Assembly: GCA_002686995.1 (NCBI GenBank)
Contig: NYZC01000403.1
Location: 20,109 to 84,108 of the forward strand
Length of the DNA: 64,000 bases
Source of the DNA: Phycisphaeraceae bacterium
GTDB lineage: Bacteria > Planctomycetota > Phycisphaerae > Phycisphaerales > Phycisphaeraceae
Direction of reading: 5' to 3'
Shown: positions 3,823 through 43,182 of the stretch, one piece after another
How positions within the stretch are numbered: the stretch's first letter is position 1
Layout of the letters: every line of letters begins with the position of its first letter
Made by a program: the position numbers and the translations under genes
The notes under the pieces: generated by a model
Database searches by the model: none
Seen by the model: the letters and a program-made list of their open reading frames with translations, nothing else
Told to the model about the DNA's origin: nothing

Positions 3823-4078
3823 ACCCCGTTCACGAACGCGGCGCGCCCACCGGCGCGCCCTTCGATTCTGAGAACCCCTGAAAAGTCCGGATAAAACGGT
3901 CCATGCCGAGTCTATCACGCACGGACTATAGAATACCGTCCTGTCCCGGCGGATAACTGCATGATGCGACGGGACTTGAGTCCCCGTGTCCCGCCGACCG
4001 ATTGATTGTAGATGCCAGCACGGCGCCGTCGCACGCACTGGAAGGACCGTTTGGTTGCTTGAACCGACCGTACAGCTG

Positions 4079-19869: not shown

Positions 19870-21212
<1,343 letters not shown>

Positions 21213-24392: not shown

Positions 24393-24432
24393 AAGGGAAG
24401 GGAGCGAGGAGCAGGGCGCGGCGAGGGGAGCG

Positions 24433-25965: not shown

Positions 25966-28900
25966 TCAGGCGATGAGACCGAGGTTCGCGATGAAGCCCT
26001 CGATCGAGCTCACGCCACCCGGGTCGGCGATGACGTCGTCCTCGCTGAAGACCATCATGTCGCCCGTAGGCGAGTTCGTGCCGCCGTCGATGAAGTCGGA
26101 GCGCCGGCCGCCGTCGATCAGGTCGTCGCCGCCGAGACCGAAGATCGAGTCGGAAGCGTTTCCGCCGCGAAGCGCGTCGTTCAGGTTCGTGCCGACGATG
26201 GCCTCGAAGTTCCGGACGCTTTCGATCAGGAAGATGCCGGAAGGCGTGCTTCTCGCCATCTTCGCCGCGAGGTCGACGTAGACGCCGGTCGACGTCAGCA
26301 GGCTGAAGTCGATCGAGTCGCCCCTGCCGCCGCCGCCGGAGATCTTCGTGTTGGTCGTCGTCGGCCCGATGTCGACGATCTGGATGATGTCGTCGCCACC
26401 GCCACCGTCGATCTGGTTGCCGTCCGAGCCTTCGAAGTCGACCATGATCAGGTCGTTGCCCGAGCCGCCCTTGACGCGGTTCTTGTCGCCGTCGATCTCG
26501 ACGTCGATGTCGTCGTTGCCGGAACCGCCGTCGACGATGTTGTTGTCGCCTTCGATGTCGGCGTCGATGTCGTCATCGCCGGAGCCGCCGGCGATGCGAG
26601 ACCTGTCGATGTCGGTGTTGACGTTGATGTCGTCGTCACCACGGCCGCCGTCGACCCGGATGCGCTCGCCGTCACCGACGTTGATCACGTCATCGCCCCG
26701 GTCGCCCTTGGCGATGCTGCGATCGCCCTCAATCGTGAGGACGTCGTTGCCGTCCTTTCCGTTGAGGTTGTCGCGACCGCCGTTACCGTCGACGACGTTG
26801 TCCTGGCTGTCGCCCGTGAACCGGTCGTCACGCGGCGTCAGGATGAAGTCCGTGACACCGCTCACCTCCACCCTCGTACCGTCGGAGAGCGTGAGGCGTC
26901 CGGGTCGGTTCGGGTTCTTGCTCAGCGAGATGACCACGCCCCGGCTGGGACGTCTCGGATCCGCAGGATCGCCCGAGAGGTCCATCGTGCCGCCCGGAAT
27001 GTCGAGCGTGTCTCTGCCGGGACTCGAGTTCACCGTGAGGCCGGTGCCGGCGAGGATGTCGTCGAAAGGCGATCCCGTGACGCCGCCGACAGGACCGTTG
27101 AAGTCGAGCGTGCTGCCGCCCGACACCGGGCCGGGGCCAACGGTGTCGCCATCGAAGGTCACGCCGGACACGGAGTTCGAGAAGTCGACGAGGTTGTTGC
27201 CGCCGCTGTCGTTGATGACGTTGGCGTCCGTCCCGCCCGGCTCGATGATGTGCGTGTCGTCACCGAGGCCGGTGTTGATCGTGTCGCTGCCCGCCGAAGA
27301 CCGGATCGTGTTGTTGCCTTCGCCGGCGCCGATCAGGTTGTTGCCGGACGTGCCGGTGATGTTGTCGTCACCGCTGCCGGTGAAGAGGTTCTCAATCGAA
27401 TTCGGCGCCAGCGTGTTGTTGCCGATCTCGGCACTGTCGAACAGCGTGCCTGCCGCCAGGTCCGCCGTAATGGGCAGGGTGGTGAAGGCGGCGTCGATGT
27501 CGTCCGTGCCGGTGCCCCCGTCGATGTTGTCATCGCCGAGACCGGCCAGGAAGGTGTCGTTGCCGCCACCGCCGTCGAGGTCATCGTTGCCGTCGCCGCC
27601 GATGATGTCGTCGTTGCCGTCGCCGCCGTCGATCACGTCGTCTCCGCCGGCACCGTCGATGTTGTCATTACCGGGGCTGCCGGTCAGCGTGTCATTGCCG
27701 GGCCCGCCGGTGAGCGTGAGCCCGCCGCCTGCACCGGAACCGTCGATGTTGTCATCGCCGGAGCCGCCGATGATGTTCTGAATGTTGGAATGGGTGTAGT
27801 TGAAGGTGGTGCCCGTGGCGGTCGTCGCCGTCACGGTGACCGGATCCGTCTGGTTCGACATGTCGAGCGTGTTGCTGCCGCCGTCGCCGTCGAGCGTGTC
27901 GTTGCCGGTATTGCTGACGAAGAACGTGTTGTCGTTGGCATCGCCGGCAAGATTGTCGTCGCCGCTGCCGCCGGTCAGGTCCTCGAAGTTCGCCAGCTGG
28001 TCGACGCCGGGGCCGGCGCCGAGGCCGCTGCCGATGCCGGGCGCGATGCCGTCGAGATCGACGGTCACGCCGGTGGCATTGGACTCGTAGCTGGCAAGGT
28101 CGGTGCCGCTGCGACCGTCCATCGTGTCGCCGGCGACGTCATGGCCGCCGCCGTCGATCTTGTTGTCGCCGCCGTCACCGCTGAGGATGTCGTCCTGCGG
28201 GCTGCCGAGGATGTCCTCGATGTCCACGATCGCGATCGTCATGCCCGGCACCACCGTGCCCGGCCGGTTCGTGTTGGCCGTGCCCTCCCCCGCGTCCAGG
28301 TCGACCTGGACGCCGGTCGTGAAGCCGCTGTAGTCCACCTGGTCGGCGTCGCTGTCGCCGCCGACGATGCGCTCGATGTTAGTCAGGCCGTTGGCGTCAT
28401 CGGCATGGGTCACGCTGTTGCCGAGGCCGTCCGTCGCCGTGACGCTGTTGATACCGAAGTTGATCGCGGACGTCGCCGCGAAGTTCGTGAAGTCGTCGGC
28501 CGTCAGGCCCAGCAGGTCGAGATCGGCCTGCACGAGGTCCGTCGGAGCGAACAGGCCGAAGCTCATCGTGTCCTCGTCTCCAGCCTGGAACGACTCGGAG
28601 GCCTCGTCGACCACGATGTCGTTGCCGAAGCCGTCGGAGAAGAAGAAGTCGTCTTCGTCGGTGCCGCCCGTCAGGCTGTCGTCGCCGCCTCCGCCGATCA
28701 GCGTGTCCCGGCCGCCGTCGCCATTGAGCGTGTCGTTGCCGTCGGCGCCGAGCAGCAGGTCGGACCCGCCGCCGCCGAGCAGGGTGTCGTTCATGGGACC
28801 GCCGACGAGCGTGTCGGCGCCGAGACCGCCGGTCAGGGTGTAGGGGCCGCCCGTGCCGCCGTACAGAATGTCGGGGAACGCACTGCCGACCACGCCCTCC

Positions 28901-31900
28901 ACGTTCGCGTAGGTGTCGGTGCCGCCGGTGCCGTCCTCGGACGAACCGGCGTCCACGCGGACGCGGACGCCCGTGGGCGCTCCGGCGAAGCTGACCTGGT
29001 CGATGCCGTCACCACCGTCGATCTCGTCGTCACCGTCGTTGCCGCCGCCGCCGCCGAAGCCGCCGCCGGCAACCGTGTCGTTGGCGGCCTCGCCGAGCAG
29101 CGTGTCGTCGCCGAGCCCGCCGTTGATCGACTGGGCCTGGCCGTCGCCGCGAAGCGAGTCGCTGCCGTCACCGCCGATGATGTCACGAATGTTGTCGATG
29201 CCGCCGGATCGCACCAGGTCCACCGTCGTCACACCGATGCCAAGATCGCTGTCGAAGCTGGCGTCGCCGGTGGTCAGGTCGACCTGAACGTCGAACGCAG
29301 TCGTCGAGGGGAAGATGCCGGACGTGATCACGTCGGAGAAGTCGATCGTGTTGATGCCGCCGGCACCGTCGATCGATCCCGTGCCGCGTGCCAGCGGGTT
29401 GAGGATGCCCGACCCGTTGGGATTGTTCCGATGGAGCCACTCGAACACGTCGTTGGCCGTGCCGCCGGTGATGTTCTCGAGGTCGTCGCCGCCATGCGTG
29501 ATGGAGTCGCCGGCCGAGGTCGCGGTGACGCTCGCCATGGTGACCGTGATGGCGCTGTTGATCGCGCTCGGGTTGAACGCTCCGCCGAAATCGGGCGGAA
29601 GCGTCGGCCCGGCGAAGCCGTTGAAGGTCAGGGCGTCCTCGCCTTCGTCCTCGGCCTCTACGATCGTGTTGGCCGCGCCGAAGCCGCCATCGCTGGTCGA
29701 GTCGGTCACGACGTACAGGTCGTCGTCGCCGCCGCCGTTCAGCGTGTCGTTGCCGGCACCGGCCACGAGCGTGTCGTCGCCCTGGCCGCCTTCGAGCGTG
29801 TCACCGTTGGCGCCGACGCCGCGGGCGATCAGCAGATCGTTGCCCTGGTCACCGAAGAGGTTGTCCAGACCGCTGCCGCCGGTGTCGCCGGCGTCGAGCA
29901 CGTCGTCGTCATCGCCGCCGCGAAGGGTGTCGTCGTCATCGTCCGAGCCGCCGTGCAGGCTGTCATCGCCCTGCAGACCCTGGATCGAGTCGTCGCCGAC
30001 GAGACCGCGCAGGATGTTGGCGAACTCGTCACCGGTGATCACGTCGTTGTTCGGCGTGCCGGTTACGTTCTCGATGTTGTGCGGCACGTTGGCCGTCACG
30101 GTCGTGCGGTTGACAGGTGCAATGGTTCCGTCGTGCTGCGTCTGCAGCGTCGGGGTGGTGCTGAGGTCAGCGACCAGCGTGTCGAAGCCGGGACCCCCGC
30201 CCTGGAGGACGCGCGAACTGTCCAGCGTGTCGTCACCGCCGCCGGGCTGCTCGTCGACCGTGTCGATTTCGCCACCCGTCGTGATCGAGTCTGACTGGTA
30301 GGTGTCGTCGCCCGCGCCGCCGACCAGCAGGTCGTCGTCGGTGGCCAGCACGGCGATGCCGTTGCCGTTGAGCGTGTCGTTGCCGTCGAGACCCGTGAGG
30401 GTGTCGTCGCCGGCATTGCCGAGGAGGCTGTCGTCCGCCGTCGAGCCGGTGATGTCATCCGGACCGGGCGTGCCCACGACACCTTCGATGTTCGCGATGC
30501 TGTCGACGCCCTGATGCACGCCGGTGCCGAGGTTGATCACCTGGCCGGTGCTGCCATCGGGATCGACGTTGCGATAGTCGATGCTGTCGACCGTTCCGGC
30601 GGGGCTGCTGCCGCCGTCGAACGAGCCGAGACCGGCGGGCGCCTCGGTGCCGAACGGGATGGGCATGTCGGCGCCGTTGTCCGTGAAGCGGAAGAAGTCC
30701 GTGCCGCTGCCGGTCAGGATCGACTCGATGAAGTCGCCGGCCGCATTAAGGAATTCCGAGCCGTCGGTGACGTTGATGGACGAGAGCGTCACGACCAGGT
30801 CTTCGCTCAGTGCCGACATGTCGAGCACGTCAGCGGTGCCTTCGCCCGTCAACTCGGTGATGACGTCGCCGCCGCCAGCCGAGAAGTTGTTCTGCACGTA
30901 CTCGTACGTGTCGTTACCGGTGTTGCCGATCAGTGTGTCGTCGCCGTCGCGACCGGTGATCGTGTCATCGCCGGCGTTGCCGGTCAGCACGTTGGCGCCG
31001 TTGTCGCCGATGAGGATGTCGGCATCCGCACCGCCGATGGCGTTCTCCATGGTTCTGGTGGTCACGGCGCCCGTGATGGTGCCACCCGTGTCGGCCTGGC
31101 CGGAGCCGGTGAATGCAGCCGCAAAATCTTCGCCGGTGAAATCGACGGTCACGACCGTGCCGACGGCCTGGCCTGCGTAGTTCAGCGTGTCGCCGGCGCC
31201 GGTGTCGGCGCCGCCGGTGATGTCGAGCGGCGAGCTCTGGGTCGGCGTGAACGTATCGTCGCCGGCATTGCCGTCGACCGTGATGCCCGCGTTCGCCGCG
31301 ACGATCTCGATCGGAACCAGGCCGCCGACCGCGACGCGCGTCGTGCCCGGCGCGCCGTCGCTGATGCCGATGGCGTCGTCGCCACCCGTCGCCTCGACGA
31401 CCACGGCGTCGGTGCCGTCACCGGTGTCGAGCGTCAGGGTGGTGACGTTGAACTGCGTGATCTCGAAGTCGACTTCCTCCTCGAAGCCGTTGCCGGGAAC
31501 GCTGTCGGCATCGGTGTCGACATCCAGCGTGGAGGTGCCGGCGCTCGGGTCGGCCGGGGTAAAGACCGCGCTGTCGTCCGAGGACGTCAGGTTCACGACG
31601 ATGTCATCGGCATCGTTGTTGTCGGTATCGCCGCCGTCCAGGAAGAACTCCGTGACATCCGAGGTCGCGTCACCCACGCCGTTGACGGTGACCGTCTCGT
31701 CCGAATCTTCCTGGCCGTTGATCTCGACCTCTTCGATGCCCGTGAGGGCGATCGGACCGCCCACGACGCCCGTGATCTGGTCGGTCGTGAGATCCACGGT
31801 CACGCTGTCGTCCGGATCGAGATTGACCGTGATTCGATCGCTGGCGGTGGGCGGACCGCCGTCGAAGGTGATGCCACCGGTGAAGATCGCGAGATTGGTC

Positions 31901-34900
31901 CCGTCGATGGTGAGCGTGTCGTCCTCGCCGCCTGTCGCGCCGCCACCGAAGTCAAGGTTGTTGATCCCAACGAGCGTCACCTCGTCGCCGTCGAGCGTCA
32001 CGGTCGGGTCAGGTGCGGCGTTCGCGTCGATCGTCCAGTCGTCGTTGTCCGTGTCGTCGCCGACGAACTGCACCTGGTCGGTGCCGCCGTTGCCGTTGAT
32101 GGTCACGTCGTCGTCGAGCTGCGTGCTGTCGACGAGGACCACGTCGTCGCCGGCCGAGCCGTTGAGGGTGTCCTCACCGCCGCCGCCGTTGACGACGATG
32201 CCGGGCGCCAGCGCGAGCGTGTCGTCGCCGGTCGAGCCGATGACCGTTTCCATCACGCCGGTGACGGCGAGCGTGTCGCCGCCGTTGATGTTCTGAACCT
32301 GCCCGGCGGTCTGGCCGACGTCGAAGGTCACGCCCCCGCCGAAGAACTCGAAGCTCAGCGAGTCGTCGCCGCTCGAGTCGTTGATCACGTCGGCCGATCC
32401 CGGCTCCTCGAAGTACTGGTCGTTGCCGTCGCCGCCGTCCATCGAGTCGTCGCCGGCCAGACCCTGAAGCTGGTCGTTGCCGTCGCCGCCGATGAGGTCG
32501 TTGTCCGCGGCACTCCCCAACAGCACGTCGTCCAGCGTGGTGCCCGTGACGTTCTCGACGAGACCGTCGCCGGAAATGCTGTTGGTGACGTCGTTGCCGT
32601 CCGTGACGGTGCCGGCGTCGAGATCGACGGTCACGCCGGCCGTCGGCGTCCCGATACCGGTGTTGGTGGCCAGCGAGAAGTCGAGTGCGTCGTCCGTACC
32701 GCCGCCGCCGTTGACCGTGTTGACACCCCAGGCATCGCCGATGAACCGGAAGGTGTCGTCACCGGCGCTGCCGTTCAGCACGTTCGATTCGTTGTTTGCC
32801 GTGAAGTCGTCGTCGCCGTCGCCGCCGAACAGCTGCTGAATATTGGCGATGCCGCCCGCGGCGCCGCCGTTGACGTTGGTGGCCGAACCGTCGTTCAGGT
32901 TGACCGTCACGTCTGTCGTGAAGTTCGACGTCAGACCGTAGTCGCCGCCGTCGTAGCGCAGCTGGTTCGTGCCGGTGCCGCCGTCAATCGTGCCGTTGAG
33001 GAAGTCGCCGTCTTCGTCGAAGGCGATGATGTCGTTGAAGCTGAAGCCGACCTGCGTGTCGAGAATGATGTTCTCGACGTTGTCGTCGATGTGCTGCACG
33101 ATCGTCGTGGCGTTGGCGCCCGGCGTGCCGGGATCGCTGTCGACGGTGATCGAGCCGAGGATGACCTCGACCGCCTGGCCGATCGTGGACAAGTCGATCG
33201 TGTCGTTGCCCTCGCCCGTGCCTTCGTTGACGTCGTCGGTCGTCGCGGCGTCGGTGATAACGAAGGTGTCGTCGCCCGTGCCGCCGGTCAGGGCGTCGGC
33301 GCCCGCGAGGCCGCTCAGGGTGTCGTTGCCGCCCTGGCCGATGAGCGCGTTGACGCCACCGTCGCCGGTGAGCGTGTCGGCAAAGGCGCTGCCGGTCGCA
33401 TTTTCGAAGAGAATGATGCCGCCCGTGCCGGTGGCCGTCGGCGTCGGGACGACCGAGAGATCCACGGCGACCGCGGAGGCATAGTTGGTGTAGTTGATGG
33501 TATCGCTGCCGGCGTTGCCGGTGATGATTCCAGCGCCGCCGCCGAACACCGCCGCGCCGCTCAGGCTGACCAGGTCGTCGCCGCTGCCCAATCGCATCAC
33601 GAGGAACCCGTCGCCGGTGTGCGTGATCGTGTGAGTGGCGTCAGCGATCGTGAAGCTTGCCGTGATGTCGACCGTCAGGTTGTTGGTCGTCGCGGATAGA
33701 TCCACGACGTCGCCACCGGATCCGGAGATCACGTCGTTGCCGAGCGCCACGCCGGCCGGGTAGAGCAGTGTGTCGGTGCCGGCGCCACCGTTCAGCACGT
33801 CGTCGCCCTCGTTGCCCTGGATCGTGTCGTTGCCCACGCCGCCGGTCAGCGTGTCGGCCTGCGTGCCGCCCTCGAGCACCTCGAAGTTGAGGATCGACGA
33901 GACGATCGCCGTCAGGTCGGCCTTGGCCGCCGCGCCGCCGAGCGTCGCCGAGACGCCCTGCGTCGTGTAGTTGAAGGTCAGCGTATCGGACGTGACATGC
34001 CCGCCGCCGTCGATGACCGTGCCGGCGCCGCCGATCACCACGTTGTCCGCGACGTTGAACTGATCGTCGTCCGCGGTGCCGATGATGACCTCGACGTCGT
34101 TCGCCGCATGGGTGACCGTGTTGCCGCCCTGGGTCACCGTCACGGACGCGAAGTTGGCGGTGATGCCGCCGGCCGTCACGTTCGAGAAGTCCATCGTGTC
34201 GACGTCCGCGCCGACGGCCTCGGACACCGTGTCGGTGCCCCAGGCGTCGAGGAACACGAAGTTGTCGCTGCCGGCGCCGCCGTCCAGCGAGTCGTTGCCG
34301 GTTCCGCCGTCGATCGTGTCGTTGCCGCCCCCGCCAGCGAGCGTCTCGTCGGCCGCGCTGCCGGTCAGGCTGTCTGCACCGTCGCCGCCCGTCACGTTGA
34401 CGAACTCACCGCCGCCGAACGTCGAAAGCGTGATTCCCGCGGCGCTGATCGTGCCGGCGCCCAGGTCCACCGTGGCCGCGGCCGCGACACCGGCGAACGT
34501 CATGATGTTCGCCTGGCCGTTCGCCGCGTCGAGGATGCCGACGCTGTTGACGCCCTGGATGACGCCGCCGCCGCCTTCAGTGATTTCACCGCCGTTCGTA
34601 CCGGCGGCGTAGGTGATCACCACGCCGATGTCGTCCACTTCGAGCGTGTCGGCGCCGCCGCTGCCGATGATGCTGTCGGTGCCTTCGGCCGCGGCAATGT
34701 CATAGATGTCGGCACCGCCGCCGCCGGTGATCGTGTCGTTGCCCCCACCGGGAATGAACGTCTCGGCCGCGGAGGTGCCGACGAAGGTGTCGGCGGCGGC
34801 CGTGCCGATCGCGATGGTGAAGCCGCTGACCGACGTCGGGAAGTTCGGCGTCACGACGCCGGTCGCGAAGTTGACCGTCTCGGGGCCGGCCTCGCCGGAG

Positions 34901-36501
34901 AGGTCGACGGTGTTGGCCTGCGCCGGATTCACGTCCAGATCCGTCGCGCCGTTGATGCCCGTCACGGTGAATACACCGTCGTCCACGGTGTCGGCCGCGG
35001 AGTCGTAGGTCAGGTCGCGCGTGACGCCGGTCATGTTGACGATGTCGCCGGCGCCGGTCGTCAGCACGTCGTCGCCGGGGTTGGCGCCCTGAAAGATCAA
35101 TTCGTCCGCGTCGGCCTCACCGTCGATCGTGTCGGCGCCGTCGCCGCCCTCGATCGTGTCGGCCCCGGCGCCGCCGGCGATCGTGTCGTCGCCGTCACCG
35201 CCGCGGATGTCGTTCGCCGCGGTGCTGCCGGTCAGGTCGTCCGCGTTGGCCGAACCAATGATGTTCTGGAAGTTGTCGGCGTTCTCGGTGTTGCCGTCGC
35301 CGTCGTCGGTAATCTCGTTCGCGGCGGAAAGATCGACCGTGACCGCGGCGGAGCCGTTGGCCAGGCTCAGGGTGTTGGTGCCGGTGCCACCGTCGAGCGT
35401 GTCCGTGCCGTCGCCACCCTCGATCGTGTCGTCGCCACCGCCGCCGACGAGCGACTCGCCCGTGCCGTCGTCGTCGCCGCGGATGTCGTCATCGCCCGAG
35501 CCGCCGGTGATCGTGTCGAAGTTGTCGAGCGTGTCGGCGATCGAGTTGTCTAGGTTGTCGGTCAGGTCCAGGTTGAGGCCGGTGGTGTACGCAGTCGCGT
35601 CCAAGGTGTTGGCGCCGGCACCGCCGTCGAGCGTGCCCGTGCCATTGCCCAGCTCGAGCCCGTTGCCGATCGTCACCGTGTCGTTCGCGCTACCCAGCAG
35701 GACCGACTCGATGGTGTTCGCGGTGTTGGTGATGGTCTGCGCCGTCACGGTGTCCGTGATCACCAGGCCGCCGCCGGTCAGGCCGACGGTCGTCACGTTG
35801 GGCACGGCGGTCCCGGTGTACAGACCGGTGGCGCCGATCGTCGCGCCCTGCAGGTCGACCGTATCGGTCCCGCCGTCGTCGATGATCGTGTCGTTGCCGT
35901 CGCCCGCCTCGTAGAGGAACACGTCGTCGTTCAATCCCGGATCGAACGGCTCCGCGTCGCCGCGCAGCGTGTCGGTGCCGATGTGGCCGCCGAGCACGTC
36001 GTCACCGTCGCCGCCGATGATCGAGTCGTCGCCGACGCCGCCGATGATCGTGTCGTTGCCGTTGCCGCCTTCGATCGTGATGCCGTAGGCCACGCCGTCG
36101 CCGGGCGCAGCGGTGCCGACGTTCACGATGTTCGCGGCGGTGGTGAAGCTGTCGTCGTCGTCACCGAGCTGAACGAGGATCTCGTTGACGTTGTCGAACG
36201 TCGGGCCGGCGCCATTGAGAATGTCGCCCGCTCCGTCCGCGACCGTCACGCGACCGTCCGTGCCGTCACTCGAAAGCGCGACCGCGTTGGCCTCGTTCGC
36301 CTGGTCGATCAGCTCGAGCCGGAACCCGCCGCCGGGCAGCGGCACCAGCGTCGCGTCGAGCAGCACGCGCGGCTCGAGCGCTTCGACGGCGAAATCGCGC
36401 TGCGAAGGCACGAACTCGCTGCGCGTCCTGGCGCGACGGCGCGAACGCTGACGACGGTTGACTTCATGCTTCTGATGCCTCTTTTGGCGCCGCTTGGACA
36501 T
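25966..36501 (-). CDS. Giant RTX-type (haemolysin-type Ca2+-binding GGxGxD repeat) secreted protein/adhesin, 3,511 aa
   Basis: More than 100 GGxGxDx(L/I/F) nonapeptide units, e.g. GGNGNDTIIGGVGDDSIIGGDGDDVLGG. The protein is extremely Gly/Asp/Thr/Asn-rich and I saw no Cys. The N-terminus is highly basic, followed by ALEPRVLLDA. The C-terminus is an RTX block followed by an acidic tail. Confidence 0.9.
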   Translation of the reverse strand: MSKRRQKRHQKHEVNRRQRSRRRARTRSEFVPSQRDFAVEALEPRVLLDATLVPLPGGGFRLELIDQANEANAVALSSDGTDGRVTVADGAGDILNGAGPTFDNVNEILVQLGDDDDSFTTAANIVNVGTAAPGDGVAYGITIEGGNGNDTIIGGVGDDSIIGGDGDDVLGGHIGTDTLRGDAEPFDPGLNDDVFLYEAGDGNDTIIDDGGTDTVDLQGATIGATGLYTGTAVPNVTTVGLTGGGLVITDTVTAQTITNTANTIESVLLGSANDTVTIGNGLELGNGTGTLDGGAGANTLDATAYTTGLNLDLTDNLDNSIADTLDNFDTITGGSGDDDIRGDDDGTGESLVGGGGDDTIEGGDGTDTLDGGTGTNTLSLANGSAAVTVDLSAANEITDDGDGNTENADNFQNIIGSANADDLTGSTAANDIRGGDGDDTIAGGAGADTIEGGDGADTIDGEADADELIFQGANPGDDVLTTGAGDIVNMTGVTRDLTYDSAADTVDDGVFTVTGINGATDLDVNPAQANTVDLSGEAGPETVNFATGVVTPNFPTSVSGFTIAIGTAAADTFVGTSAAETFIPGGGNDTITGGGGADIYDIAAAEGTDSIIGSGGADTLEVDDIGVVITYAAGTNGGEITEGGGGVIQGVNSVGILDAANGQANIMTFAGVAAAATVDLGAGTISAAGITLSTFGGGEFVNVTGGDGADSLTGSAADETLAGGGGNDTIDGGTGNDSLDGGAGSDNFVFLDAWGTDTVSEAVGADVDTMDFSNVTAGGITANFASVTVTQGGNTVTHAANDVEVIIGTADDDQFNVADNVVIGGAGTVIDGGGHVTSDTLTFNYTTQGVSATLGGAAAKADLTAIVSSILNFEVLEGGTQADTLTGGVGNDTIQGNEGDDVLNGGAGTDTLLYPAGVALGNDVISGSGGDVVDLSATTNNLTVDITASFTIADATHTITHTGDGFLVMRLGSGDDLVSLSGAAVFGGGAGIITGNAGSDTINYTNYASAVAVDLSVVPTPTATGTGGIILFENATGSAFADTLTGDGGVNALIGQGGNDTLSGLAGADALTGGTGDDTFVITDAATTDDVNEGTGEGNDTIDLSTIGQAVEVILGSITVDSDPGTPGANATTIVQHIDDNVENIILDTQVGFSFNDIIAFDEDGDFLNGTIDGGTGTNQLRYDGGDYGLTSNFTTDVTVNLNDGSATNVNGGAAGGIANIQQLFGGDGDDDFTANNESNVLNGSAGDDTFRFIGDAWGVNTVNGGGGTDDALDFSLATNTGIGTPTAGVTVDLDAGTVTDGNDVTNSISGDGLVENVTGTTLDDVLLGSAADNDLIGGDGNDQLQGLAGDDSMDGGDGNDQYFEEPGSADVINDSSGDDSLSFEFFGGGVTFDVGQTAGQVQNINGGDTLAVTGVMETVIGSTGDDTLALAPGIVVNGGGGEDTLNGSAGDDVVLVDSTQLDDDVTINGNGGTDQVQFVGDDTDNDDWTIDANAAPDPTVTLDGDEVTLVGINNLDFGGGATGGEDDTLTIDGTNLAIFTGGITFDGGPPTASDRITVNLDPDDSVTVDLTTDQITGVVGGPIALTGIEEVEINGQEDSDETVTVNGVGDATSDVTEFFLDGGDTDNNDADDIVVNLTSSDDSAVFTPADPSAGTSTLDVDTDADSVPGNGFEEEVDFEITQFNVTTLTLDTGDGTDAVVVEATGGDDAIGISDGAPGTTRVAVGGLVPIEIVAANAGITVDGNAGDDTFTPTQSSPLDITGGADTGAGDTLNYAGQAVGTVVTVDFTGEDFAAAFTGSGQADTGGTITGAVTTRTMENAIGGADADILIGDNGANVLTGNAGDDTITGRDGDDTLIGNTGNDTYEYVQNNFSAGGGDVITELTGEGTADVLDMSALSEDLVVTLSSINVTDGSEFLNAAGDFIESILTGSGTDFFRFTDNGADMPIPFGTEAPAGLGSFDGGSSPAGTVDSIDYRNVDPDGSTGQVINLGTGVHQGVDSIANIEGVVGTPGPDDITGSTADDSLLGNAGDDTLTGLDGNDTLNGNGIAVLATDDDLLVGGAGDDTYQSDSITTGGEIDTVDEQPGGGDDTLDSSRVLQGGGPGFDTLVADLSTTPTLQTQHDGTIAPVNRTTVTANVPHNIENVTGTPNNDVITGDEFANILRGLVGDDSIQGLQGDDSLHGGSDDDDDTLRGGDDDDVLDAGDTGGSGLDNLFGDQGNDLLIARGVGANGDTLEGGQGDDTLVAGAGNDTLNGGGDDDLYVVTDSTSDGGFGAANTIVEAEDEGEDALTFNGFAGPTLPPDFGGAFNPSAINSAITVTMASVTATSAGDSITHGGDDLENITGGTANDVFEWLHRNNPNGSGILNPLARGTGSIDGAGGINTIDFSDVITSGIFPSTTAFDVQVDLTTGDASFDSDLGIGVTTVDLVRSGGIDNIRDIIGGDGSDSLRGDGQAQSINGGLGDDTLLGEAANDTVAGGGFGGGGGNDGDDEIDGGDGIDQVSFAGAPTGVRVRVDAGSSEDGTGGTDTYANVEGVVGSAFPDILYGGTGGPYTLTGGLGADTLVGGPMNDTLLGGGGSDLLLGADGNDTLNGDGGRDTLIGGGGDDSLTGGTDEDDFFFSDGFGNDIVVDEASESFQAGDEDTMSFGLFAPTDLVQADLDLLGLTADDFTNFAATSAINFGINSVTATDGLGNSVTHADDANGLTNIERIVGGDSDADQVDYSGFTTGVQVDLDAGEGTANTNRPGTVVPGMTIAIVDIEDILGSPQDDILSGDGGDNKIDGGGHDVAGDTMDGRSGTDLASYESNATGVTVDLDGIAPGIGSGLGAGPGVDQLANFEDLTGGSGDDNLAGDANDNTFFVSNTGNDTLDGDGGSNTLDMSNQTDPVTVTATTATGTTFNYTHSNIQNIIGGSGDDNIDGSGAGGGLTLTGGPGNDTLTGSPGNDNIDGAGGDDVIDGGDGNDDIIGGDGNDDLDGGGGNDTFLAGLGDDNIDGGTGTDDIDAAFTTLPITADLAAGTLFDSAEIGNNTLAPNSIENLFTGSGDDNITGTSGNNLIGAGEGNNTIRSSAGSDTINTGLGDDTHIIEPGGTDANVINDSGGNNLVDFSNSVSGVTFDGDTVGPGPVSGGSTLDFNGPVGGVTGSPFDDILAGTGLTVNSSPGRDTLDIPGGTMDLSGDPADPRRPSRGVVISLSKNPNRPGRLTLSDGTRVEVSGVTDFILTPRDDRFTGDSQDNVVDGNGGRDNLNGKDGNDVLTIEGDRSIAKGDRGDDVINVGDGERIRVDGGRGDDDINVNTDIDRSRIAGGSGDDDIDADIEGDNNIVDGGSGNDDIDVEIDGDKNRVKGGSGNDLIMVDFEGSDGNQIDGGGGDDIIQIVDIGPTTTNTKISGGGGRGDSIDFSLLTSTGVYVDLAAKMARSTPSGIFLIESVRNFEAIVGTNLNDALRGGNASDSIFGLGGDDLIDGGRRSDFIDGGTNSPTGDMMVFSEDDVIADPGGVSSIEGFIANLGLIA

Positions 36502-36946
36502 GGTGGAGTACCCCTAGGAGCACTTGGACTGGGGTCGCGTCGACCCGAGACCTGCATTGCTCTGCGCTGCTCTGCGACTTGGTGTGCGCGAATACAGAAT
36601 ACGAAAGTTCCAAAATGGCCGGATATTCCGTCGCAGGACGGCTTATCGGGACCACACAAGTTCAGACTTTAGATTACTGAGCCAATTTCTCAACTTCAAA
36701 GCGCGGCGCTTCGACGCATCGTCAACGACCGATATTGCGTCGCCGCGTGGTGCTGGCGGTCTCATCGTGCCGCATCGCACCGACAGGATTTCCAGTAACG
36801 ACTCCGATAGCGTCGTTGTTGTCGGTGATGTTCAGGGGGAGCGTCCTTGCGAAGATCTCTGGTTCTATTGTCCCGAAACCGGGACGAGTCCTGATACGTC
36901 CCGATCTGCCCTGGCTCGCGCCAGCTCCGTCGAACCGGCCGGGAGT

Positions 36947-39094
36947 CTAACCGAGCGGCATCGTCCGGTCCAGCCAGTCGTCTCGCCGAACCAGCGAGCG
37001 CCGGATGTCGCCGGCCCGCGTCCGAATCCGCCGACGCGCCCATCCGATCAGAGCCCGCGAGACGATTCGCGGCGATGAAACACGGCCGGACTCGGCCTTG
37101 GCGCCGGCAGCATACATGCGGCGCAAACACTTTACAACCCAGGATGCCTCCCATGTGTAAAAAAGGTCCTCCAAACTTATAAAAAGCTGACAGGAATTCG
37201 ACGGCCCGTTCCTGGCGGCACGACCGATAAGTCGCTCGGCGTCACGCACCGCCGAGGGTTCGTGCCCGACGACGATGACCTGCACCGATGCGTCGATCGC
37301 GTCTCGCTCATCGGCCGCCGCGCCGAGGCGCCCGCCCTGCCCGCCGACCACCGTGATCGCGCCGGGCACTGCGAGCCGATCCAGCGCCGACGCTTCGCGG
37401 TCGGGCTGCACGCCGGTCACCTGCCCGGCGTCCATCCCGCGCTCTGTCAGCAGGTCGCCGATGCTACGCACGCCGGCAGCCGAGCCCGTCACGACCAGGA
37501 CCGGCATCCCTTCCCGATAACACCTCTCGGCCTCGTCCGCGACAAGGCCGTGCATGCGCGCCGTGGCGGCGACGAGGCGCGGGGTCGCCGCGAACGTGCG
37601 GTCCCGTCTTGCCGTAAACCCCCGAAGAATAAGACCATACATCTGCGATAACTCCCGCCGACGGAGGCGGCACGACGTGGAGGACACGCCGCAAAGTACG
37701 CGGTAGAGGCGGAAGAACCGCTGGAGGCTCAGGCTTGCCAGCGTCCTGCGCTCCGCCGTGATCTCGAGCCCCTCCTTCGCCTCGATCGCCTGCTCGACGC
37801 CGAACTGACGTCGACGGTCGGGCAGATAGGTCTGGCCCGTGGACGGGTCGATCATGATCACGCGATCCTCGATGACGTCGTAGTCGCGTCCCCGCTCGTA
37901 GCAGATGGAGGCGGCGAGAGCCCGCTCGACCACCTCGCGGCGCCGGCGGTCGCCGTGCCAGAACGCCGTGTCGATGCCGGCCTCGTCGGGCTCGTCGATC
38001 TCGGCCAGGCGAATCCACCCCTCGTCCGTCAGCCGGACGATCCGGCGATCGGAGTGCACTATATAGTCCACGTCCGCCACCAGGTCCCCGGCCAGTCGGA
38101 CCGCCCGGCGCAGGACGTCCGGCGCGGTATGGGGCCCGGGGACGGTGGAAATGACCAGCGGGGAGATCGCATCGTCCAGCAGCGTGCCGTCGATGTCGTC
38201 CACGATCGCGGCGTGCAGGCCCGGCACGGTGATGCGCTCCGTGGCGGCCGCGGATGCCGCGACCGGGGTCATGTGCTCGATGACCGCCTCCCGCGCCGGG
38301 CCGAGACGAATCTGGTCGCGCAGCCAGTCGCCGATCAGTTGGCGCGCCGCCACGTACACCACCGGGTGGCGGTAGGCCGCAAGCTTCCGGTCCCGGGGCT
38401 GGCCCGCCTCGACGTGGGCCGCCGCAAGCCCGGCCCGGCGCAACAGCGGCGCCATCGCGCCGCCGTCCCGCGCCGCCTGGAAATCATTCGCCACCACCAC
38501 GTGCACCGATGGATGCGACCACCCGGCAAGCACGGCGGCGAGCGCGACGACCGGAGCCCGTGGCGTCGCGCCCGCCAGCGCCGCGGCCTGCCCGTGAAAA
38601 AGAGCCAGCGCCGCCGCCACCTGCGTGTCGTGAGGTCTCTGACCGATCTCTCTCGCGGCCATCTCCCGCACGCACGCCATCGCCTCGGTCAGCGACGACG
38701 GCGACACGGGTCGGCGGGCGAATGCTTCGCGCAGCCGCGCGGCGCGCTCGTCGAGCTCGGGCTCGGACAGGTCCTGATATTGCGGGCCGAGCCGGTCGAC
38801 CTGCGCGGCGAGCTGCCGGCAGCGCCGAACGCGGCCCGGAACCTGTCGCATTCGCGTCACCCATCTTCCCACCAGACCGTCGAGACCCCATGCCACCGGC
38901 GCGCGGCGACGCCGGGTCGTAAAAGACCACCACATGGCGTCGTAGCGTCCGATTGCCTGCGTCATCAGCCTGCTCCCGCCTTGCCGGTGCGTCGCCCGGG
39001 CGGCGGCCCCGGAATTGTTAATTAATGCACAGGATACAGGAACCGGGCCGCGATGCAAGTCCGGCGCGGGAAGGAGACGGAGGATTCGGGGCAT
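36947..39094 (-). CDS. SecA-like protein with degenerate ATPase motifs
   Basis: Collinear with SecA across the DEAD motor and preprotein-binding regions (LSEPELDERAARLREAF; VHVVVANDFQAARD; IVDDIDGTLLDDAISPLVIS; QFGVEQAIEAKEGLEITAERRTLASLSLQRFFRLY; PVLVVTGS). Walker A, Walker B and motif III are not conserved. An alternative start is the ATG at 38965. Confidence 0.8.
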   Translation of the reverse strand: MPRILRLLPAPDLHRGPVPVSCALINNSGAAARATHRQGGSRLMTQAIGRYDAMWWSFTTRRRRAPVAWGLDGLVGRWVTRMRQVPGRVRRCRQLAAQVDRLGPQYQDLSEPELDERAARLREAFARRPVSPSSLTEAMACVREMAAREIGQRPHDTQVAAALALFHGQAAALAGATPRAPVVALAAVLAGWSHPSVHVVVANDFQAARDGGAMAPLLRRAGLAAAHVEAGQPRDRKLAAYRHPVVYVAARQLIGDWLRDQIRLGPAREAVIEHMTPVAASAAATERITVPGLHAAIVDDIDGTLLDDAISPLVISTVPGPHTAPDVLRRAVRLAGDLVADVDYIVHSDRRIVRLTDEGWIRLAEIDEPDEAGIDTAFWHGDRRRREVVERALAASICYERGRDYDVIEDRVIMIDPSTGQTYLPDRRRQFGVEQAIEAKEGLEITAERRTLASLSLQRFFRLYRVLCGVSSTSCRLRRRELSQMYGLILRGFTARRDRTFAATPRLVAATARMHGLVADEAERCYREGMPVLVVTGSAAGVRSIGDLLTERGMDAGQVTGVQPDREASALDRLAVPGAITVVGGQGGRLGAAADERDAIDASVQVIVVGHEPSAVRDAERLIGRAARNGPSNSCQLFISLEDLFYTWEASWVVKCLRRMYAAGAKAESGRVSSPRIVSRALIGWARRRIRTRAGDIRRSLVRRDDWLDRTMPLG

Positions 39095-39153: not shown

Positions 39154-41289
39154 TCACGCCGTATCGACCGCCTGCAGGAACCGGCGCCACCAGCGTGCGG
39201 CGAGGCTCGTCCGCCCGAACGTGAAGCGGACCTTCGCCCGCTGCCCGGGCTGAACCGCGACGTCGTCCGGCAGGCTGATGCGGACCTCGAACACGGATTC
39301 CGCCGCCTCGAAGCCCCGCGCGTCGGTGCGGAGCGAGCCGCCGCCGTAGTAGCCAAACATCCGGTGACGAAGCTGCTGCGTGCCGGAGGGGCTCACGCGC
39401 TCGACCTTTCCGTCCAGAACCTGGTCGATCCGCCCGATCGGTCGCAGCTGCACCGCCGGGGCGGCGCTCTCGCCGAACAGCAGCGAATTGTGCTTCTGGT
39501 CGATGATCGCGATCGCCACGAGCCGCTCGTTCCCGGCGTGGACGCGCCCAAGCACCTCGCCCCGCTCGAGGTACTGGCCCTGGAGCACGCTGAGCGCCGG
39601 GGCGACGAGCTGACCGGCGCCCGGGCTCGTCAGCGTCAGATCCTGAATCCTGCGGTCCACCTCCGCGAGCTGGCCTTCCAGCGACGCAAGACGGGCGAGC
39701 GCCTTGTCCTTTTCGTCATGAAAGCCCTCGCCGCCGGCGGCGTCCGCGAGCAGCTTCTCGTGGACCATCTTCGCGACGAGCCGCTCCCGCTCCAGCGCAA
39801 GGTCGCGGTTGGTCGCCTCGAGAATGACCTGGTCCGCGTCGACCGGCTGCCCGTCGTCCAGCGCCACGCGCTCGACGAAGCCGTCGACGGACATGACGAG
39901 CTCCATCCAGTCCTCCGGCTCGATCACGGCGTCGACGTACGCGTGACGCCCGACCGGAAGAAGCCCCACGACCGCGACGACGCCCGCCACGGCGCCGCAC
40001 GTCGACGCCCAGGCACGACCGCGCCGACCATGCAGCATCGGGCTCACCGCGAGGAACCGCGTCAGCTTCGCGAGTGGCACGATCACCCAGGTCAGCAGCA
40101 GGATCGTCACGAGCAGGACGCCGAGCCCGAAGAACAGGCGCGACACGAACCACGCGATCGCGACCATGATGAACGCGCGATAGGTCCAGGCCGAGACCGC
40201 ATAGGTCAGCAGCCAGGACCGCTCGGTGCGGCTGTGGGCCACGGGGCGCAGGTCGCGCAGACCGTAGAAACATCGCTGGAGGACCTGCTGGAGCTGCGCG
40301 TTGGCGTTCTTCAGCAGGTTGGGAATGTCCAGCAGGTCGGTCAGCACGTAGTAGCCGTCGAAGCGGAGCAGCGGGTTGGCGTTGAACAGCAGCGTCGCGA
40401 CGCCCGACACGAAGATGGTCCGATGGGCCAGCTCGTTCACGACGCCGGGCGCCGTGCCCGCCCAGACGAACACCGCCAGCGCGGCGACCGCGGTCTCGAC
40501 GATGATCCCCGCCAGGCCGACGAGCGCCCGCTGCAACCGGCTCTCGAGCCCCCAGCTGCTCGTCGCATCGCAATACGGCACCGGCGCGAACACCAGCAGC
40601 ATCACGCCCATCTCGTGCACCTGCCCGCCGAACCGCCGGCACATCAGGCCGTGCCCGAACTCGTGGACCACCTTGATGAGAACGAACAGCACGCCGAGCC
40701 AAAGCACGTTGCCCGGCCGGATCATCAGCGTGGTTTGCTCCCAGAGCGTCGACCAGCGCGGCGCCAGCCGGACCAGGGCCGCCAGCAGCAACGCGATCCA
40801 GGCCAGCAGCCCCCACCGGCTCAGCAGCGGACGGACCACCGGCAGCAGCGCATCGATCGCCGCCGCGGGGTCGAACAGCGGCACCTTGACGAACAGGAAG
40901 CTCGACCACTGCTTCCGGCGCATCACCGACCGCCGGCGCTGCATGCGCTTGAACAGCTGCGCGGCGTCGGTCGTCCCGTCGACGGTCACGAGGCTGGTCT
41001 GGTAGAGCTGGCTGATCAGGGCGAACACCTCGCCCTGCGTCGGCGCGCGGTCGCCGAACTGCTCCATGCAGAGCGTCCACGCCTGCTCGACCGTGCGCCG
41101 CCCGTCGAACAGGGCGACGAGGTGGTAGGTCACCGGATCGAGGCGATAGAACTGGTTGGCGGCCGGGTCGGAGAGGACGTAGCCGCGGCGGCGGCGGAAG
41201 TGCCGGCGCCGCACGACGACGGAGCTGCGCAGCCGCACGCGCAACGACGCGATCCGGTCCCATTCATGGCTGTGGGTCGCACGTTCCAT
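39154..41289 (-). CDS. M50 (site-2-protease family) zinc metalloprotease fused to a C-terminal HlyD-like periplasmic adaptor, with a PqqD/RRE-like N-terminal domain
   Basis: HEFGH (HExxH, nt 40651-40665) sits in a polytopic membrane core, with a later NPLLRFDGYY motif. The C-terminal about 250 aa are HlyD-like (coiled coil plus beta-barrel). N-terminal residues about 35-100 read YVLSDPAANQFYRLDPVTYHLVALFDGRRTVEQAW...EVFALISQL. Confidence 0.85.
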   Translation of the reverse strand: MERATHSHEWDRIASLRVRLRSSVVVRRRHFRRRRGYVLSDPAANQFYRLDPVTYHLVALFDGRRTVEQAWTLCMEQFGDRAPTQGEVFALISQLYQTSLVTVDGTTDAAQLFKRMQRRRSVMRRKQWSSFLFVKVPLFDPAAAIDALLPVVRPLLSRWGLLAWIALLLAALVRLAPRWSTLWEQTTLMIRPGNVLWLGVLFVLIKVVHEFGHGLMCRRFGGQVHEMGVMLLVFAPVPYCDATSSWGLESRLQRALVGLAGIIVETAVAALAVFVWAGTAPGVVNELAHRTIFVSGVATLLFNANPLLRFDGYYVLTDLLDIPNLLKNANAQLQQVLQRCFYGLRDLRPVAHSRTERSWLLTYAVSAWTYRAFIMVAIAWFVSRLFFGLGVLLVTILLLTWVIVPLAKLTRFLAVSPMLHGRRGRAWASTCGAVAGVVAVVGLLPVGRHAYVDAVIEPEDWMELVMSVDGFVERVALDDGQPVDADQVILEATNRDLALERERLVAKMVHEKLLADAAGGEGFHDEKDKALARLASLEGQLAEVDRRIQDLTLTSPGAGQLVAPALSVLQGQYLERGEVLGRVHAGNERLVAIAIIDQKHNSLLFGESAAPAVQLRPIGRIDQVLDGKVERVSPSGTQQLRHRMFGYYGGGSLRTDARGFEAAESVFEVRISLPDDVAVQPGQRAKVRFTFGRTSLAARWWRRFLQAVDTA

Positions 41290-41295
41290 CCGCAG

Positions 41296-43182
41296 CTACC
41301 ACCAGAGGGCCAGGCGCAGGAAGTCGACGAGCTTGTGGGTCATGATCCAGATGACGCGGCGCGACGCGACGTCGATCTTCGCCACGCCCTCGAAGCCCGG
41401 GCGCATCCAGTCCTCCTCGCGCTCCAGCTCGCAGTAGACCGGGAAGAAGGTTCCGCCCTCGTGAGCGACGCCCACGGGCACCACGCGCGTCACCGTGAAG
41501 TTCACGGTGACCGACGGGTTGCCTCGGGCGGCGAGTGCGCCCGTGCCGCCGAGACGCACCTGGTCGATATCGCGCTCGTCGACCCGGATCATCGCCCGCA
41601 GCAGCGGACGGCCGTCCTCGCTGCCGTGCAGCGGCGCGACCTCGAACAGCGTCTGGCCCAGCTCGACCCGCACGCCCTTGCGCTCCTGCCAGTCGCCCGT
41701 CACGACCACGCCGTCCTCGACGGCCACGATGTGCGCGTCGGCGATCTGCCGGGCGTAGAGATCGCGCTCGACCTCGTACACGCGCATCATCGCCTTGTAA
41801 CGCTCGGCGTCGTCGGGCGATCCGCCCAGGGAGCGCCGGTGATCGATGATCGCCACGGCCAGCTGGCTCTCGGCGCCGTCCCGCATCAGCTCCAGCGGCC
41901 GCGCATCCATGCGCACCAGCGGATCGCCGGCCTTCACCGGGTCGCCGTTGCGGGCGAACACCTCCTCGATGTGCCCGGTGTAAGGCGACGCGTAGACCCG
42001 CTTCTCGCGCGCCTCGAAGACGAACGGCGCCTCGACTCGGTAGTTCCATTTCACGAAGCACGACGCGATCAGCAGCACGCTCACGGTGAGCGCGACCAGC
42101 TTCAAGCCGACGTGCTCGGGACCGATGACGCGCCCCGCGAGCGTGCGCAGGTCCTGCCAGAGCTGGACCGCGGCGGGGCGGTCTCCGCGATGCCGGTCCG
42201 CCAGCGCGGGCGCGACCAGGTCGGCGATCACCTGGAACTGCGTGACGTCCGAGCCTTCGAACGGCCGGCTGCGGGGGCGCTCCGCGGTCAGCACCCCCCC
42301 GATCTCGTCGCCGTGACGAAGCGGCACGGACACGACGCCCTCCTGCTCGGTCGCCAGCTCGTGATGACAACGGCTGACCACCTGCTGCAGCCACTGGTCT
42401 TCGCCCTGGAAGTGATCGGCCGGCGCCGCCACGGCCCGGCCCTGGTCCATGCACTCCTCCATCGCCGACGCGATGGCCTCGCTCAGCTCCTGGCGCCGAT
42501 CGACGTTGTCCGTGTCGCTCATCGCCACGAGCCGGATCGAGCTGCCGCGCGCCCACCCGATCGCGACGCGCGACGCGTTCAGCTCGACGGACAGGGCATT
42601 GCACACCGCCATGCACGACTCGTGAAACCGGCCCGCCTGCTGCGCGGCGGTGAGCACGCTGAGCGCGCGGCGGGCGCCGGCGTTCTCGCGCAGCTGGCGC
42701 CGAAGACCCCGGGAGGAAAGGTGCAGCTTGTAGAGGCGGGCCGCCCACTGCAGGTGCGCGAGGAAGGGCTGAATCCGCTCCTGGTCCTGGTCAGGGGCCA
42801 GGACGACCGCGATGCCGTCGGTCGCGGTTTCGGACTCGAGCGGCGTGCAGATCGCGTGATAGACGCTGTTGCCCATCGCGATGCGGTAGACGCTGAGCTG
42901 CCCGGCCTTCTCGCACCGCTGCACGCAGTCGCGCAGGATCTCCACGCGGTCGGGCTCGACCTGCACGTGCCGACCGGGCGCCATGGGATAGACGGTGACG
43001 AGGCGCGACGGCTGGTCCTCGCGAAGCACGAACACGGCGCCGGAGACGCCGCCGACCAGCTTCGCCATCAGTTCGATGAGCAGCGTGAGAAACGGCAGGT
43101 CCTGGCCGGCCGCCGCCTCGACCTGGGCCGCAAGCTGCTGAAGCTGATCGTTGGTCACCTTGGTTGCCGTCGCCGGAGGCAT
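41296..43182 (-). CDS. Tandem-GAF-domain protein fused to an HlyD-family membrane-fusion (periplasmic adaptor) domain
   Basis: Two GAF-like cytoplasmic modules, a single TM helix (LKLVALTVSVLLIASCFV), then HlyD-type lipoyl and beta-barrel segments (YASPYTGHIEEVFARNGDPVKAGDPLVRMD). The stop lies 6 nt before the next gene's start. The start is set at the ATG at 43182; the track ORF extends to 43272, into a repeat. Confidence 0.8.
   Translation of the reverse strand: MPPATATKVTNDQLQQLAAQVEAAAGQDLPFLTLLIELMAKLVGGVSGAVFVLREDQPSRLVTVYPMAPGRHVQVEPDRVEILRDCVQRCEKAGQLSVYRIAMGNSVYHAICTPLESETATDGIAVVLAPDQDQERIQPFLAHLQWAARLYKLHLSSRGLRRQLRENAGARRALSVLTAAQQAGRFHESCMAVCNALSVELNASRVAIGWARGSSIRLVAMSDTDNVDRRQELSEAIASAMEECMDQGRAVAAPADHFQGEDQWLQQVVSRCHHELATEQEGVVSVPLRHGDEIGGVLTAERPRSRPFEGSDVTQFQVIADLVAPALADRHRGDRPAAVQLWQDLRTLAGRVIGPEHVGLKLVALTVSVLLIASCFVKWNYRVEAPFVFEAREKRVYASPYTGHIEEVFARNGDPVKAGDPLVRMDARPLELMRDGAESQLAVAIIDHRRSLGGSPDDAERYKAMMRVYEVERDLYARQIADAHIVAVEDGVVVTGDWQERKGVRVELGQTLFEVAPLHGSEDGRPLLRAMIRVDERDIDQVRLGGTGALAARGNPSVTVNFTVTRVVPVGVAHEGGTFFPVYCELEREEDWMRPGFEGVAKIDVASRRVIWIMTHKLVDFLRLALWW

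Follow-up and report, generated by a model that had tools for sequence, protein, structure and literature searches.

An apparently maintained short SecA relative that lacks the ATPase motifs, encoded beside a giant LEPR-XLL protein gene in a Phycisphaeraceae contig

The 64,000-nucleotide stretch of Phycisphaeraceae contig NYZC01000403.1 analysed here (the window, positions 20,109 to 84,108 of the contig) contains, on its reverse strand, a gene for a truncated relative of SecA, the ATP-driven motor of protein export, in which the motifs for ATP hydrolysis have been replaced. The contig comes from a marine metagenome assembly (a Phycisphaeraceae metagenome-assembled genome, whose NCBI assembly includes MAE67653.1), and the NCBI copy of the protein is annotated as "hypothetical protein". 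From sequence comparison, it appears to be part of a new, catalytically dead clade within a known, experimentally uncharacterised family of short SecA proteins. Its gene is located between that of an intramembrane metalloprotease of the M50 type, which also carries a HlyD-like membrane-fusion protein (MFP) adaptor, and that of a giant RTX-repeat protein with an amino-terminal LEPR-XLL domain. We lean towards the view that it has been maintained as a subunit of an export apparatus for LEPR-XLL giants, serving there as a receptor or scaffold that does not hydrolyse ATP. Feature coordinates are collected in Table 1; proteins and loci used for comparison carry P and L numbers.

The loss of the ATPase motifs is seen both in the phmmer alignment with sequences from the PDB and in a 25-sequence alignment of the family. 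Where the Walker A sequence MKTGEGKT is expected, LAGATPRA is found; motif V has changed from NMAGRGTD to GGQGGRLG (37322–37345) and motif VI from GRxxRQGDPGS to GRAARNGPSNS (GRAARNGPSN is encoded by 37196–37225). The initial annotation had noted the absence of GKT from Walker A, together with the replacement of VDEVDS by VDDIDG, of GMTGTA by GVSSTS and of NMAGRGTD by GGQGGRLG. The alignments agree with the last three, with coordinates to within a codon, and with the Walker A loss, although the Walker A relic ends at 38584 rather than 38587. A functional P-loop elsewhere in the protein, which the same annotation had named as an observation that would overturn its reading, is ruled out, since regular-expression searches of the whole SecA-like protein for GK[ST] and for [AG]xxxxGK[ST] returned nothing. 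The window protein retains 64 of 115 family-conserved columns, versus 79–99% in intact members. Judging from its sequence, we infer that it has lost ATP hydrolysis.

This degeneration is rare in the family, where the motifs EMxTGEGKT, DEAD, GMTGTA, ATNMAGRGTDI and GRxxRQGDPGS are near-invariant and about 95% of full-length representatives keep all or nearly all of them. To sample the family, 1.84 billion proteins were searched exhaustively and the best 150 representatives taken; these are about 490–760 amino acids long, and the database relatives are typically SecA-like proteins of about 650–700 residues with the same truncation. Only four of the 150 (P0031, P0033, P0037 and the window protein) lack all five motifs. 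A few others are partly degenerate (P0051, P0093 and P0117), and the remaining imperfect ones resemble truncations. Searching species-representative genomes with the window protein alone gave no match. An alignment-based scan of species representatives was keyed on the ATPase motifs and returned mostly housekeeping SecA, with only L010–L014 and L069 being useful; because those motifs served as its patterns, degenerate members were unfindable by it. We found no report in the literature of a degenerate or ATPase-dead SecA relative that is maintained.

In a neighbour-joining tree, the window protein forms one clade with P0031, P0214, P0033 and P0037 (bootstrap 92/100), beside the intact proteins P0215 and P0032, with which the clade has amino- and carboxy-terminal signatures in common. 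All five members are full length (663–693 residues) at a shared identity of 30–42%, and the genes for P0037, P0214 and P0031 come straight after an M50-MFP gene, the arrangement also found in the window (loci L090, L091 and L092). On this tree, the ATPase motifs were lost once within the clade, after which full-length reading frames persisted. L090 (P0037) and L092 (P0031) are from the same metagenome assembly, ERZ17293991, at equal coverage (5x), and may represent two dead-SecA cassettes within one genome. A second, independent degenerate clade consists of P0028 and P0211 (bootstrap 100). Across the two clades, the catalytic glutamate of the DEAD box is replaced by aspartate ([DE]DxD) in all seven degenerate sequences compared (the window protein, P0031, P0033, P0037, P0051, P0028 and P0211), and the Walker A lysine has mostly become arginine; these look like convergent conservative substitutions. 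In locus L093 (genes at 1486–3411, 3422–4234, 4252–5310 and 5371–6876), the neighbours of the P0211 gene encode a tryptophan halogenase, an O-methyltransferase and a small MFP, a setting that hints at a small-molecule context or one of ribosomally synthesised and post-translationally modified peptides (RiPPs), not a giant-protein one.

The SecA homologue described by the initial annotation is borne out: the 715-residue open reading frame (ORF) exists on the reverse strand (36947–39094) and matches the Pfam families SecA_DEAD (E = 9.5e-55) and SecA_PP_bind (3.2e-11), with P-loop_SecA below threshold. The frame is indeed intact, but its start probably lies 43 codons further in, at methionine 44 (ATG at 38965), giving a protein of 672 residues. 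This start is chosen by the gene callers in three sources, gives the protein the MTQA amino-terminus common to its relatives and is preceded by GGGAG 8 nucleotides 5′ of the ATG. The GC content by codon position is flat in the 43 upstream codons (0.70/0.61/0.70) versus 0.74/0.53/0.83 in the gene. Together, the gene callers, the MTQA starts of the relatives and the missing upstream codon periodicity speak against the 715-residue start.

When compared with PDB sequences by phmmer, residues 89–709 of the 715-residue frame align with residues 16–604 of Bacillus subtilis SecA (E = 4.7e-54), and the alignment ends at about residue 604–607 of the latter. The protein is made up of an amino-terminal extension, the first nucleotide-binding domain (NBD1), the preprotein cross-linking domain (PPXD), the second nucleotide-binding domain (NBD2) and the first scaffold helix. 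The domain scan gave no match to SecA_SW or SEC-C in it, and the helical wing domain, the two-helix finger (IRA1) and the carboxy-terminal tail are absent. By these comparisons it is not a whole SecA, the SecY-interacting carboxy-terminal half being missing. All NCBIfam models of SecA and SecA2 match the protein, each far under its curated cut-off: TIGR00963 scores 215.5 against 800 bits, NF009538 229.4 against 814 and NF006630 246.8 against 862, while the SecA2 models TIGR03714, TIGR04221, TIGR04397 and NF012136 score 169–203 against cut-offs of 725–1100 bits (203 against 930 in one case). An AlphaFold2 model has a pLDDT of 77.9 and a pTM of 0.77, with segments of lower pLDDT in NBD2. A Foldseek search with this model gives PDB entry 1tf2 as top match (E = 3.7e-35) and the best TMq, 0.76, for chain A of entry 6itc, a substrate-engaged SecA (E = 7.2e-34). 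The NBD1-PPXD-NBD2 fold of SecA is thus kept in the predicted structure.

Short "secondary SecA_DEAD domain proteins" were described as a family by Kamneva et al. in 2015 (PMC4452313), who proposed that the SecA_DEAD protein is an ATPase replacing an ABC transporter and the M50 protein a membrane pore. The short family is sister to actinobacterial SecA2 in the tree of that paper, in which its catalytic motifs and substrates were not examined; we found no later work on it. Among the carriers named by Kamneva et al. is the cultivable Methylobacterium extorquens AM1 (META1p2399–2402). The window gene is a member of the family. Its product has SecA_DEAD and PP_bind and lacks SecA_SW, its gene adjoins the M50-HlyD and GAF-HlyD genes, and the neighbour-joining tree places it within the short family, next to P0215 and P0032; of the family's intact ATPase motifs it has zero out of five. 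The resemblance to the 2015 family extends to the architecture, the composition of the locus and the phylum range, while the loss of all ATPase motifs in the window member and its clade and the link to LEPR-XLL proteins described below are differences.

The genes of the cassette are ordered as a small MFP (not always present), the GAF-MFP, the PqqD/M50-MFP and the short SecA, sometimes then a gene for a TolC-like OEP, on contigs of Planctomycetota, Verrucomicrobiota and Gammaproteobacteria. The order found in the window is matched in L003, L004, L006, L008 and L091, with OEP genes adjoining the cassettes of L006 and L008. Neither a canonical secA nor an ABC transporter gene was found among the scanned ORFs of the window. 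The M50-HlyD protein of the window has an intact active site, with HEFGH at residue 209 and NANPLLRFDG at residue 303, and both motifs (HExxH and NxxPxxxFDG) are likewise preserved in all the degenerate loci. Its profile scores are below the cut-offs (25.9 against 27.2 bits for Pfam M50; 174 against 300, at 4e-51, for daptide_HExxH), and its PqqD match is weak.

Evidence for maintenance comes from the relatives of the window gene. The initial annotation had proposed to estimate dN/dS among orthologues; no close orthologue of the window gene was found (the 90% cluster of its product has three members only), so that selection on its lineage is judged from relatives, the nearest measurable degenerate pair being P0214 and P0031. 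For this pair, 85.6% identical, dN/dS is 0.31 (dS 0.26), and for the adjacent M50-MFP gene it is 0.23. Purifying selection, somewhat relaxed, acts on the degenerate sister pair. Constraint has shifted between domains: with 56–59% identity, NBD2 is better conserved than any other domain of intact members, yet in the degenerate clade it has the lowest value (27%), while the amino-terminal extension, NBD1 and PPXD have 41–43% identity in the degenerate clade (mean 43% for PPXD), at or above the values for the intact family. In all four degenerate clade lineages, 52 of 161 columns conserved in intact members are kept. Codon-position periodicity in GC content is kept in the window gene, being strongest in PPXD and weakest in NBD2 (GC at third codon positions, GC3, of 0.81). 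GC at second positions (GC2) is 0.53, versus 0.44–0.48 in the neighbouring genes, and this raised GC2, with the lowered GC3 given below, is consistent with drift to alanine, arginine and glycine codons under relaxed constraint.

When distant intact cassettes are compared with each other, SecA is the most conserved component (44% identity, about 450 bits), followed by the M50-MFP (36–38%) and the GAF-MFP (about 30%). The window SecA has 32–34% identity with the others and 240–294 bits, under the 450 bits or so between intact clades, whereas its M50-MFP partner has 35% and 404–424 bits, against 421–464, and the similarity of the GAF-MFP is also as expected. Within the window cassette, the faster divergence is specific to the SecA-like gene. 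Taken together, this evidence argues against simple decay. The proposal of the initial annotation, a maintained SecA-fold protein without ATPase activity and not a pseudogene, is supported, at the level of sequence, by the motif loss, the predicted SecA fold, the full-length degenerate clade and the dN/dS of 0.31.

The giant protein encoded directly downstream of the SecA-like gene contains 15 stretches matching HemolysinCabind (1.7e-76). A LEPR-XLL domain (NF012209) scores 25.1 bits against a cut-off of 17 at residues 37–57 (about 36331–36393) and is preceded by a very basic amino-terminus (domain and terminus together spanning about 36331–36501). Homologous amino-termini, with the pattern EFVPxQxDFxVxxLEPRVLLDA, are encoded by the partial genes that follow the degenerate SecA genes of L091 and L092, and by the gene that follows that of intact P0215 (L094/L095). 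LEPR-XLL genes also follow intact short SecA genes on contigs L013 (Opitutaceae) and L014 (Gammaproteobacteria), and in L096 the gene for intact P0216 is followed by that of a giant LEPR-XLL protein of more than 4,078 residues, with the M50 and GAF genes not adjacent. A small DUF3467 gene sits between the two in this last locus (L096:12307–12666). Counted over all loci, a LEPR-XLL gene is directly downstream in 7 of 15 short-SecA loci, from three phyla, and in 1 of 74 other SecA loci (Fisher p = 7e-6); the seven are the window, L091:10792–11310, L092:4674–5003, L094:4237–6150, L096:12888–21989, L013:4633–6066 and L014:12965–14020.

The M50-HlyD partner resembles the leader-processing enzymes of RiPP pathways in having a PqqD-like recognition element and an intramembrane HExxH protease. 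This likeness, together with the downstream linkage, suggests that LEPR-XLL is an amino-terminal export or processing signal for the short-SecA/M50/HlyD cassette. We found no statement in the literature that ties LEPR-XLL to the cassette, and the 2015 family paper makes none. In a preprint on Chlorochromatium, giant proteins bearing LEPRxLL domains and a horizontally acquired secA are both reported, and the two are not connected. A specific tie between ATPase loss and RTX cargo is weakened by intact P0215, whose gene precedes a nearly identical LEPR-XLL/RTX gene; since this closest intact relative also has such a cargo gene, RTX cargo predates the loss, and may have permitted it without explaining it.

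On the reading that we favour, the window protein would not hydrolyse ATP and would act as a non-catalytic receptor or scaffold. The clamp of PPXD and NBD1, with the family-specific amino-terminal extension, would hold the basic, LEPR-XLL-bearing amino-terminus of the giant substrate and dock it on the M50-MFP protein of the membrane. There, the leader would be recognised, and perhaps cleaved, with the RRE-like domain and the intact HExxH site of that protein. NBD2 would drift, being no longer needed for an ATPase cycle. Export would draw its energy from another source, which may be the proton-motive force, an ATPase whose gene lies beyond the window, or the Ca2+-driven folding of RTX repeats that have left the cell. 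Such Ca2+-driven folding is a known ratchet for classical cargo of type I secretion. That the cassette constitutes a distinct trans-envelope system for LEPR-XLL giants, which in this clade would have no dedicated ATPase, use the dead SecA as receptor or clamp and export by RTX folding, proton-motive force or both, is a more speculative extension that we regard as doubtful.

Several observations weigh against the receptor or scaffold reading. A LEPR-XLL gene is not found nearby in 8 of the 15 short-SecA loci, and among the scanned ORFs of the window there is neither a small MFP gene nor one for a TolC-like OEP. The other copies of the window gene (L001 and L002) are 99.995% identical over 19–22 kb, with no close orthologue beyond them, and fast-evolving sequences could group in the neighbour-joining tree partly through long-branch attraction. 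GC3 is 0.83 in the SecA-like gene versus 0.90–0.93 in the GAF-HlyD, M50-HlyD and RTX genes; as GC3 is under that of the neighbours and dN/dS above that of the M50 gene, constraint is relaxed. Finally, we infer the receptor function, the identity of the substrate and the energy source from sequence.

The binding role could also be exercised in company. SecA dimerises, and the dead short SecA might be a regulatory or specificity subunit, with an intact short or housekeeping SecA encoded elsewhere supplying hydrolysis. Conserved NBD1, PPXD and amino-terminal extension alongside a decayed NBD2 would suit such a subunit with a purely binding role, there is purifying selection, and the occurrence of the P0031 and P0037 lineages in one assembly makes several copies per community or genome possible. 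Yet there is exactly one SecA-like gene per cassette, and no second one in the 64-kb window or in the degenerate loci L090–L092; we consider this arrangement possible, though unlikely. It is less probable still that the loss of the ATPase has left a useless protein, whose frame survives because stop codons are rare at about 70% GC. The many long spurious ORFs in the window, the shifted GC3 and GC2 relative to the neighbours, the accelerated divergence and an NBD2 that is poorly conserved and has low-pLDDT segments are all as slow decay would have them. Against it, the whole length of the protein is homologous in a single frame without frame-shifting indels, and the five clade members have stayed full length despite their low identity. 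The dN/dS of the measurable pair, the conserved columns kept by four lineages, the codon periodicity with its peak in PPXD, and the intact partner genes and 3,511-residue substrate gene speak in the same sense.

Another way to account for the substitutions is that lysine to arginine and glutamate to aspartate leave a site that binds ATP and barely hydrolyses it, so that the protein would be a latch and not a motor. The recurrence of the glutamate to aspartate change in every degenerate sequence of two independent clades, with lysine to arginine in most, would be explained in this way. P0033 retains a GxxGxGRT loop and GQGTDI, and the window protein retains R582 and R585 of motif VI. In the window protein, however, nothing is left of the glycine-rich loop, and motif III, motif V and the Q/DPG portion of motif VI have disappeared as well; half of the site is supplied by NBD2, the domain under the weakest constraint. 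A nucleotide-binding switch is for these reasons the least probable of the explanations considered, and the receptor or scaffold subunit remains the one we prefer.

When the window protein is compared with canonical SecA (TIGR00963 and NF009538), the NBD1-PPXD-NBD2 fold and the scaffold residues DxLRD, PLxIS, EAKEG and QRFF are common to both. It differs in lacking Walker A and B, the helical wing domain, the two-helix finger and the carboxy-terminal tail, in its family-specific amino-terminal extension and in a gene that is not beside secY. Like SecA2 of Actinobacteria and Firmicutes, it would be a second, specialised SecA paralogue devoted to few substrates; SecA2, however, retains its ATPase motifs along with the greater part of the scaffold and wing, and its gene context is unlike that of the window.

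Type I secretion with processing of an amino-terminal leader uses a peptidase-containing ABC exporter, an MFP and TolC. The cassette shares with it the MFP domains, an RTX substrate, an occasionally adjacent OEP gene and a leader-recognising protease module carried by the inner-membrane component (here RRE/PqqD and M50). It has no ABC transporter, its cytoplasmic NTPase is SecA-like (and dead in the window), and its presumed signal is the amino-terminal LEPR-XLL instead of a carboxy-terminal RTX signal. Of the type I set of ABC transporter, MFP and TolC-like outer-membrane factor, the scanned ORFs of the window give MFP domains only. Modules of SecA_DEAD and PP_bind without wing or scaffold have been described inside giant proteins of Omnitrophota and Actinobacteria (bioRxiv 10.1101/2023.11.21.568195). 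There too, a truncated, fast-evolving SecA motor is tied to giant-protein export, but it is fused into the giant, while here it is encoded by a separate gene of the M50/HlyD cassette.

Table 1. Positions of the SecA-like gene, its domains and motif relics, and neighbouring features in the window
Feature	Position	Strand	Details
Degenerate short SecA-like gene	36947..38965	(-)	672 aa from M44; ORF to 39094 = 715 aa
Walker A / motif I relic	38549..38584	(-)	AALAGATPRAPV where (L)AEMxTGEGKTL is expected
Walker B / DEAD box relic	38186..38203	(-)	VDDIDG; DEVD/DEAD changed to DDID, catalytic Glu to Asp
Preprotein cross-linking domain (PPXD)	37745..38140	(-)	Residues ~276-407 of the 672-aa protein; GC3 0.90, highest within the gene
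Motif III relic	37673..37690	(-)	GVSSTS where GMTGTA is expected
NBD2	37166..37630	(-)	Residues ~446-600 of the 672-aa protein; lower pLDDT
NBD2 motif relics V, GGLHV and VI	37196..37345	(-)	
Giant RTX-repeat protein, presumed substrate	25966..36501	(-)	3,511 aa; uninterrupted 10.5-kb gene directly downstream
Sigma-70-like promoter match	36666..36693	(-)	Consensus match only; lies in the 445-nt spacer, of lower GC, that precedes the giant gene
Stem-loop	39100..39140	(-)	In 188-nt spacer from M50-HlyD stop to SecA-like start; -36.1 kcal/mol, z = -4.3
PqqD/RRE-like + M50-type intramembrane metalloprotease + HlyD-like adaptor	39154..41289	(-)	711 aa; RRE-like domain in residues 1-120
GAF + HlyD-type membrane-fusion protein	41296..43182	(-)	628 aa as called; ORF to 43272

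The spacer between the M50-HlyD and SecA-like genes contains a predicted stem-loop, whereas in several intact cassettes these two genes overlap by 4–7 nucleotides; the dead SecA may therefore be uncoupled, in transcription or translation, from its M50 partner. The giant RTX gene is followed on the same strand by genes for a sulfatase and a GT4 glycosyltransferase (23121–25848, reverse strand), which could be involved in modifying the cargo or the envelope. Further away, on the forward strand, a gene for a nonribosomal peptide synthetase of 2,542 residues (11813–19441) has the order A-PCP ... C-A-PCP-TE with a methyltransferase-like insert. A cytidine/dCMP-deaminase-type domain (residues 985–1083), an unusual tailoring domain for such a synthetase, is embedded at its carrier/condensation boundary.

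The short-SecA/M50/HlyD cassette is known from a single comparative-genomics paper. A natural clade with a dead ATPase would point to the parts of these proteins that matter beyond hydrolysis, namely the amino-terminal extension, NBD1 and PPXD. The LEPR-XLL giants, among them those of the Chlorochromatium symbiosis, are a candidate class of cargo, and this link may be a more useful lead than the dead SecA itself. If true, it would provide a route by which some of the largest proteins of bacteria are secreted, and would account for what the orphan amino-terminal LEPR-XLL domain does.

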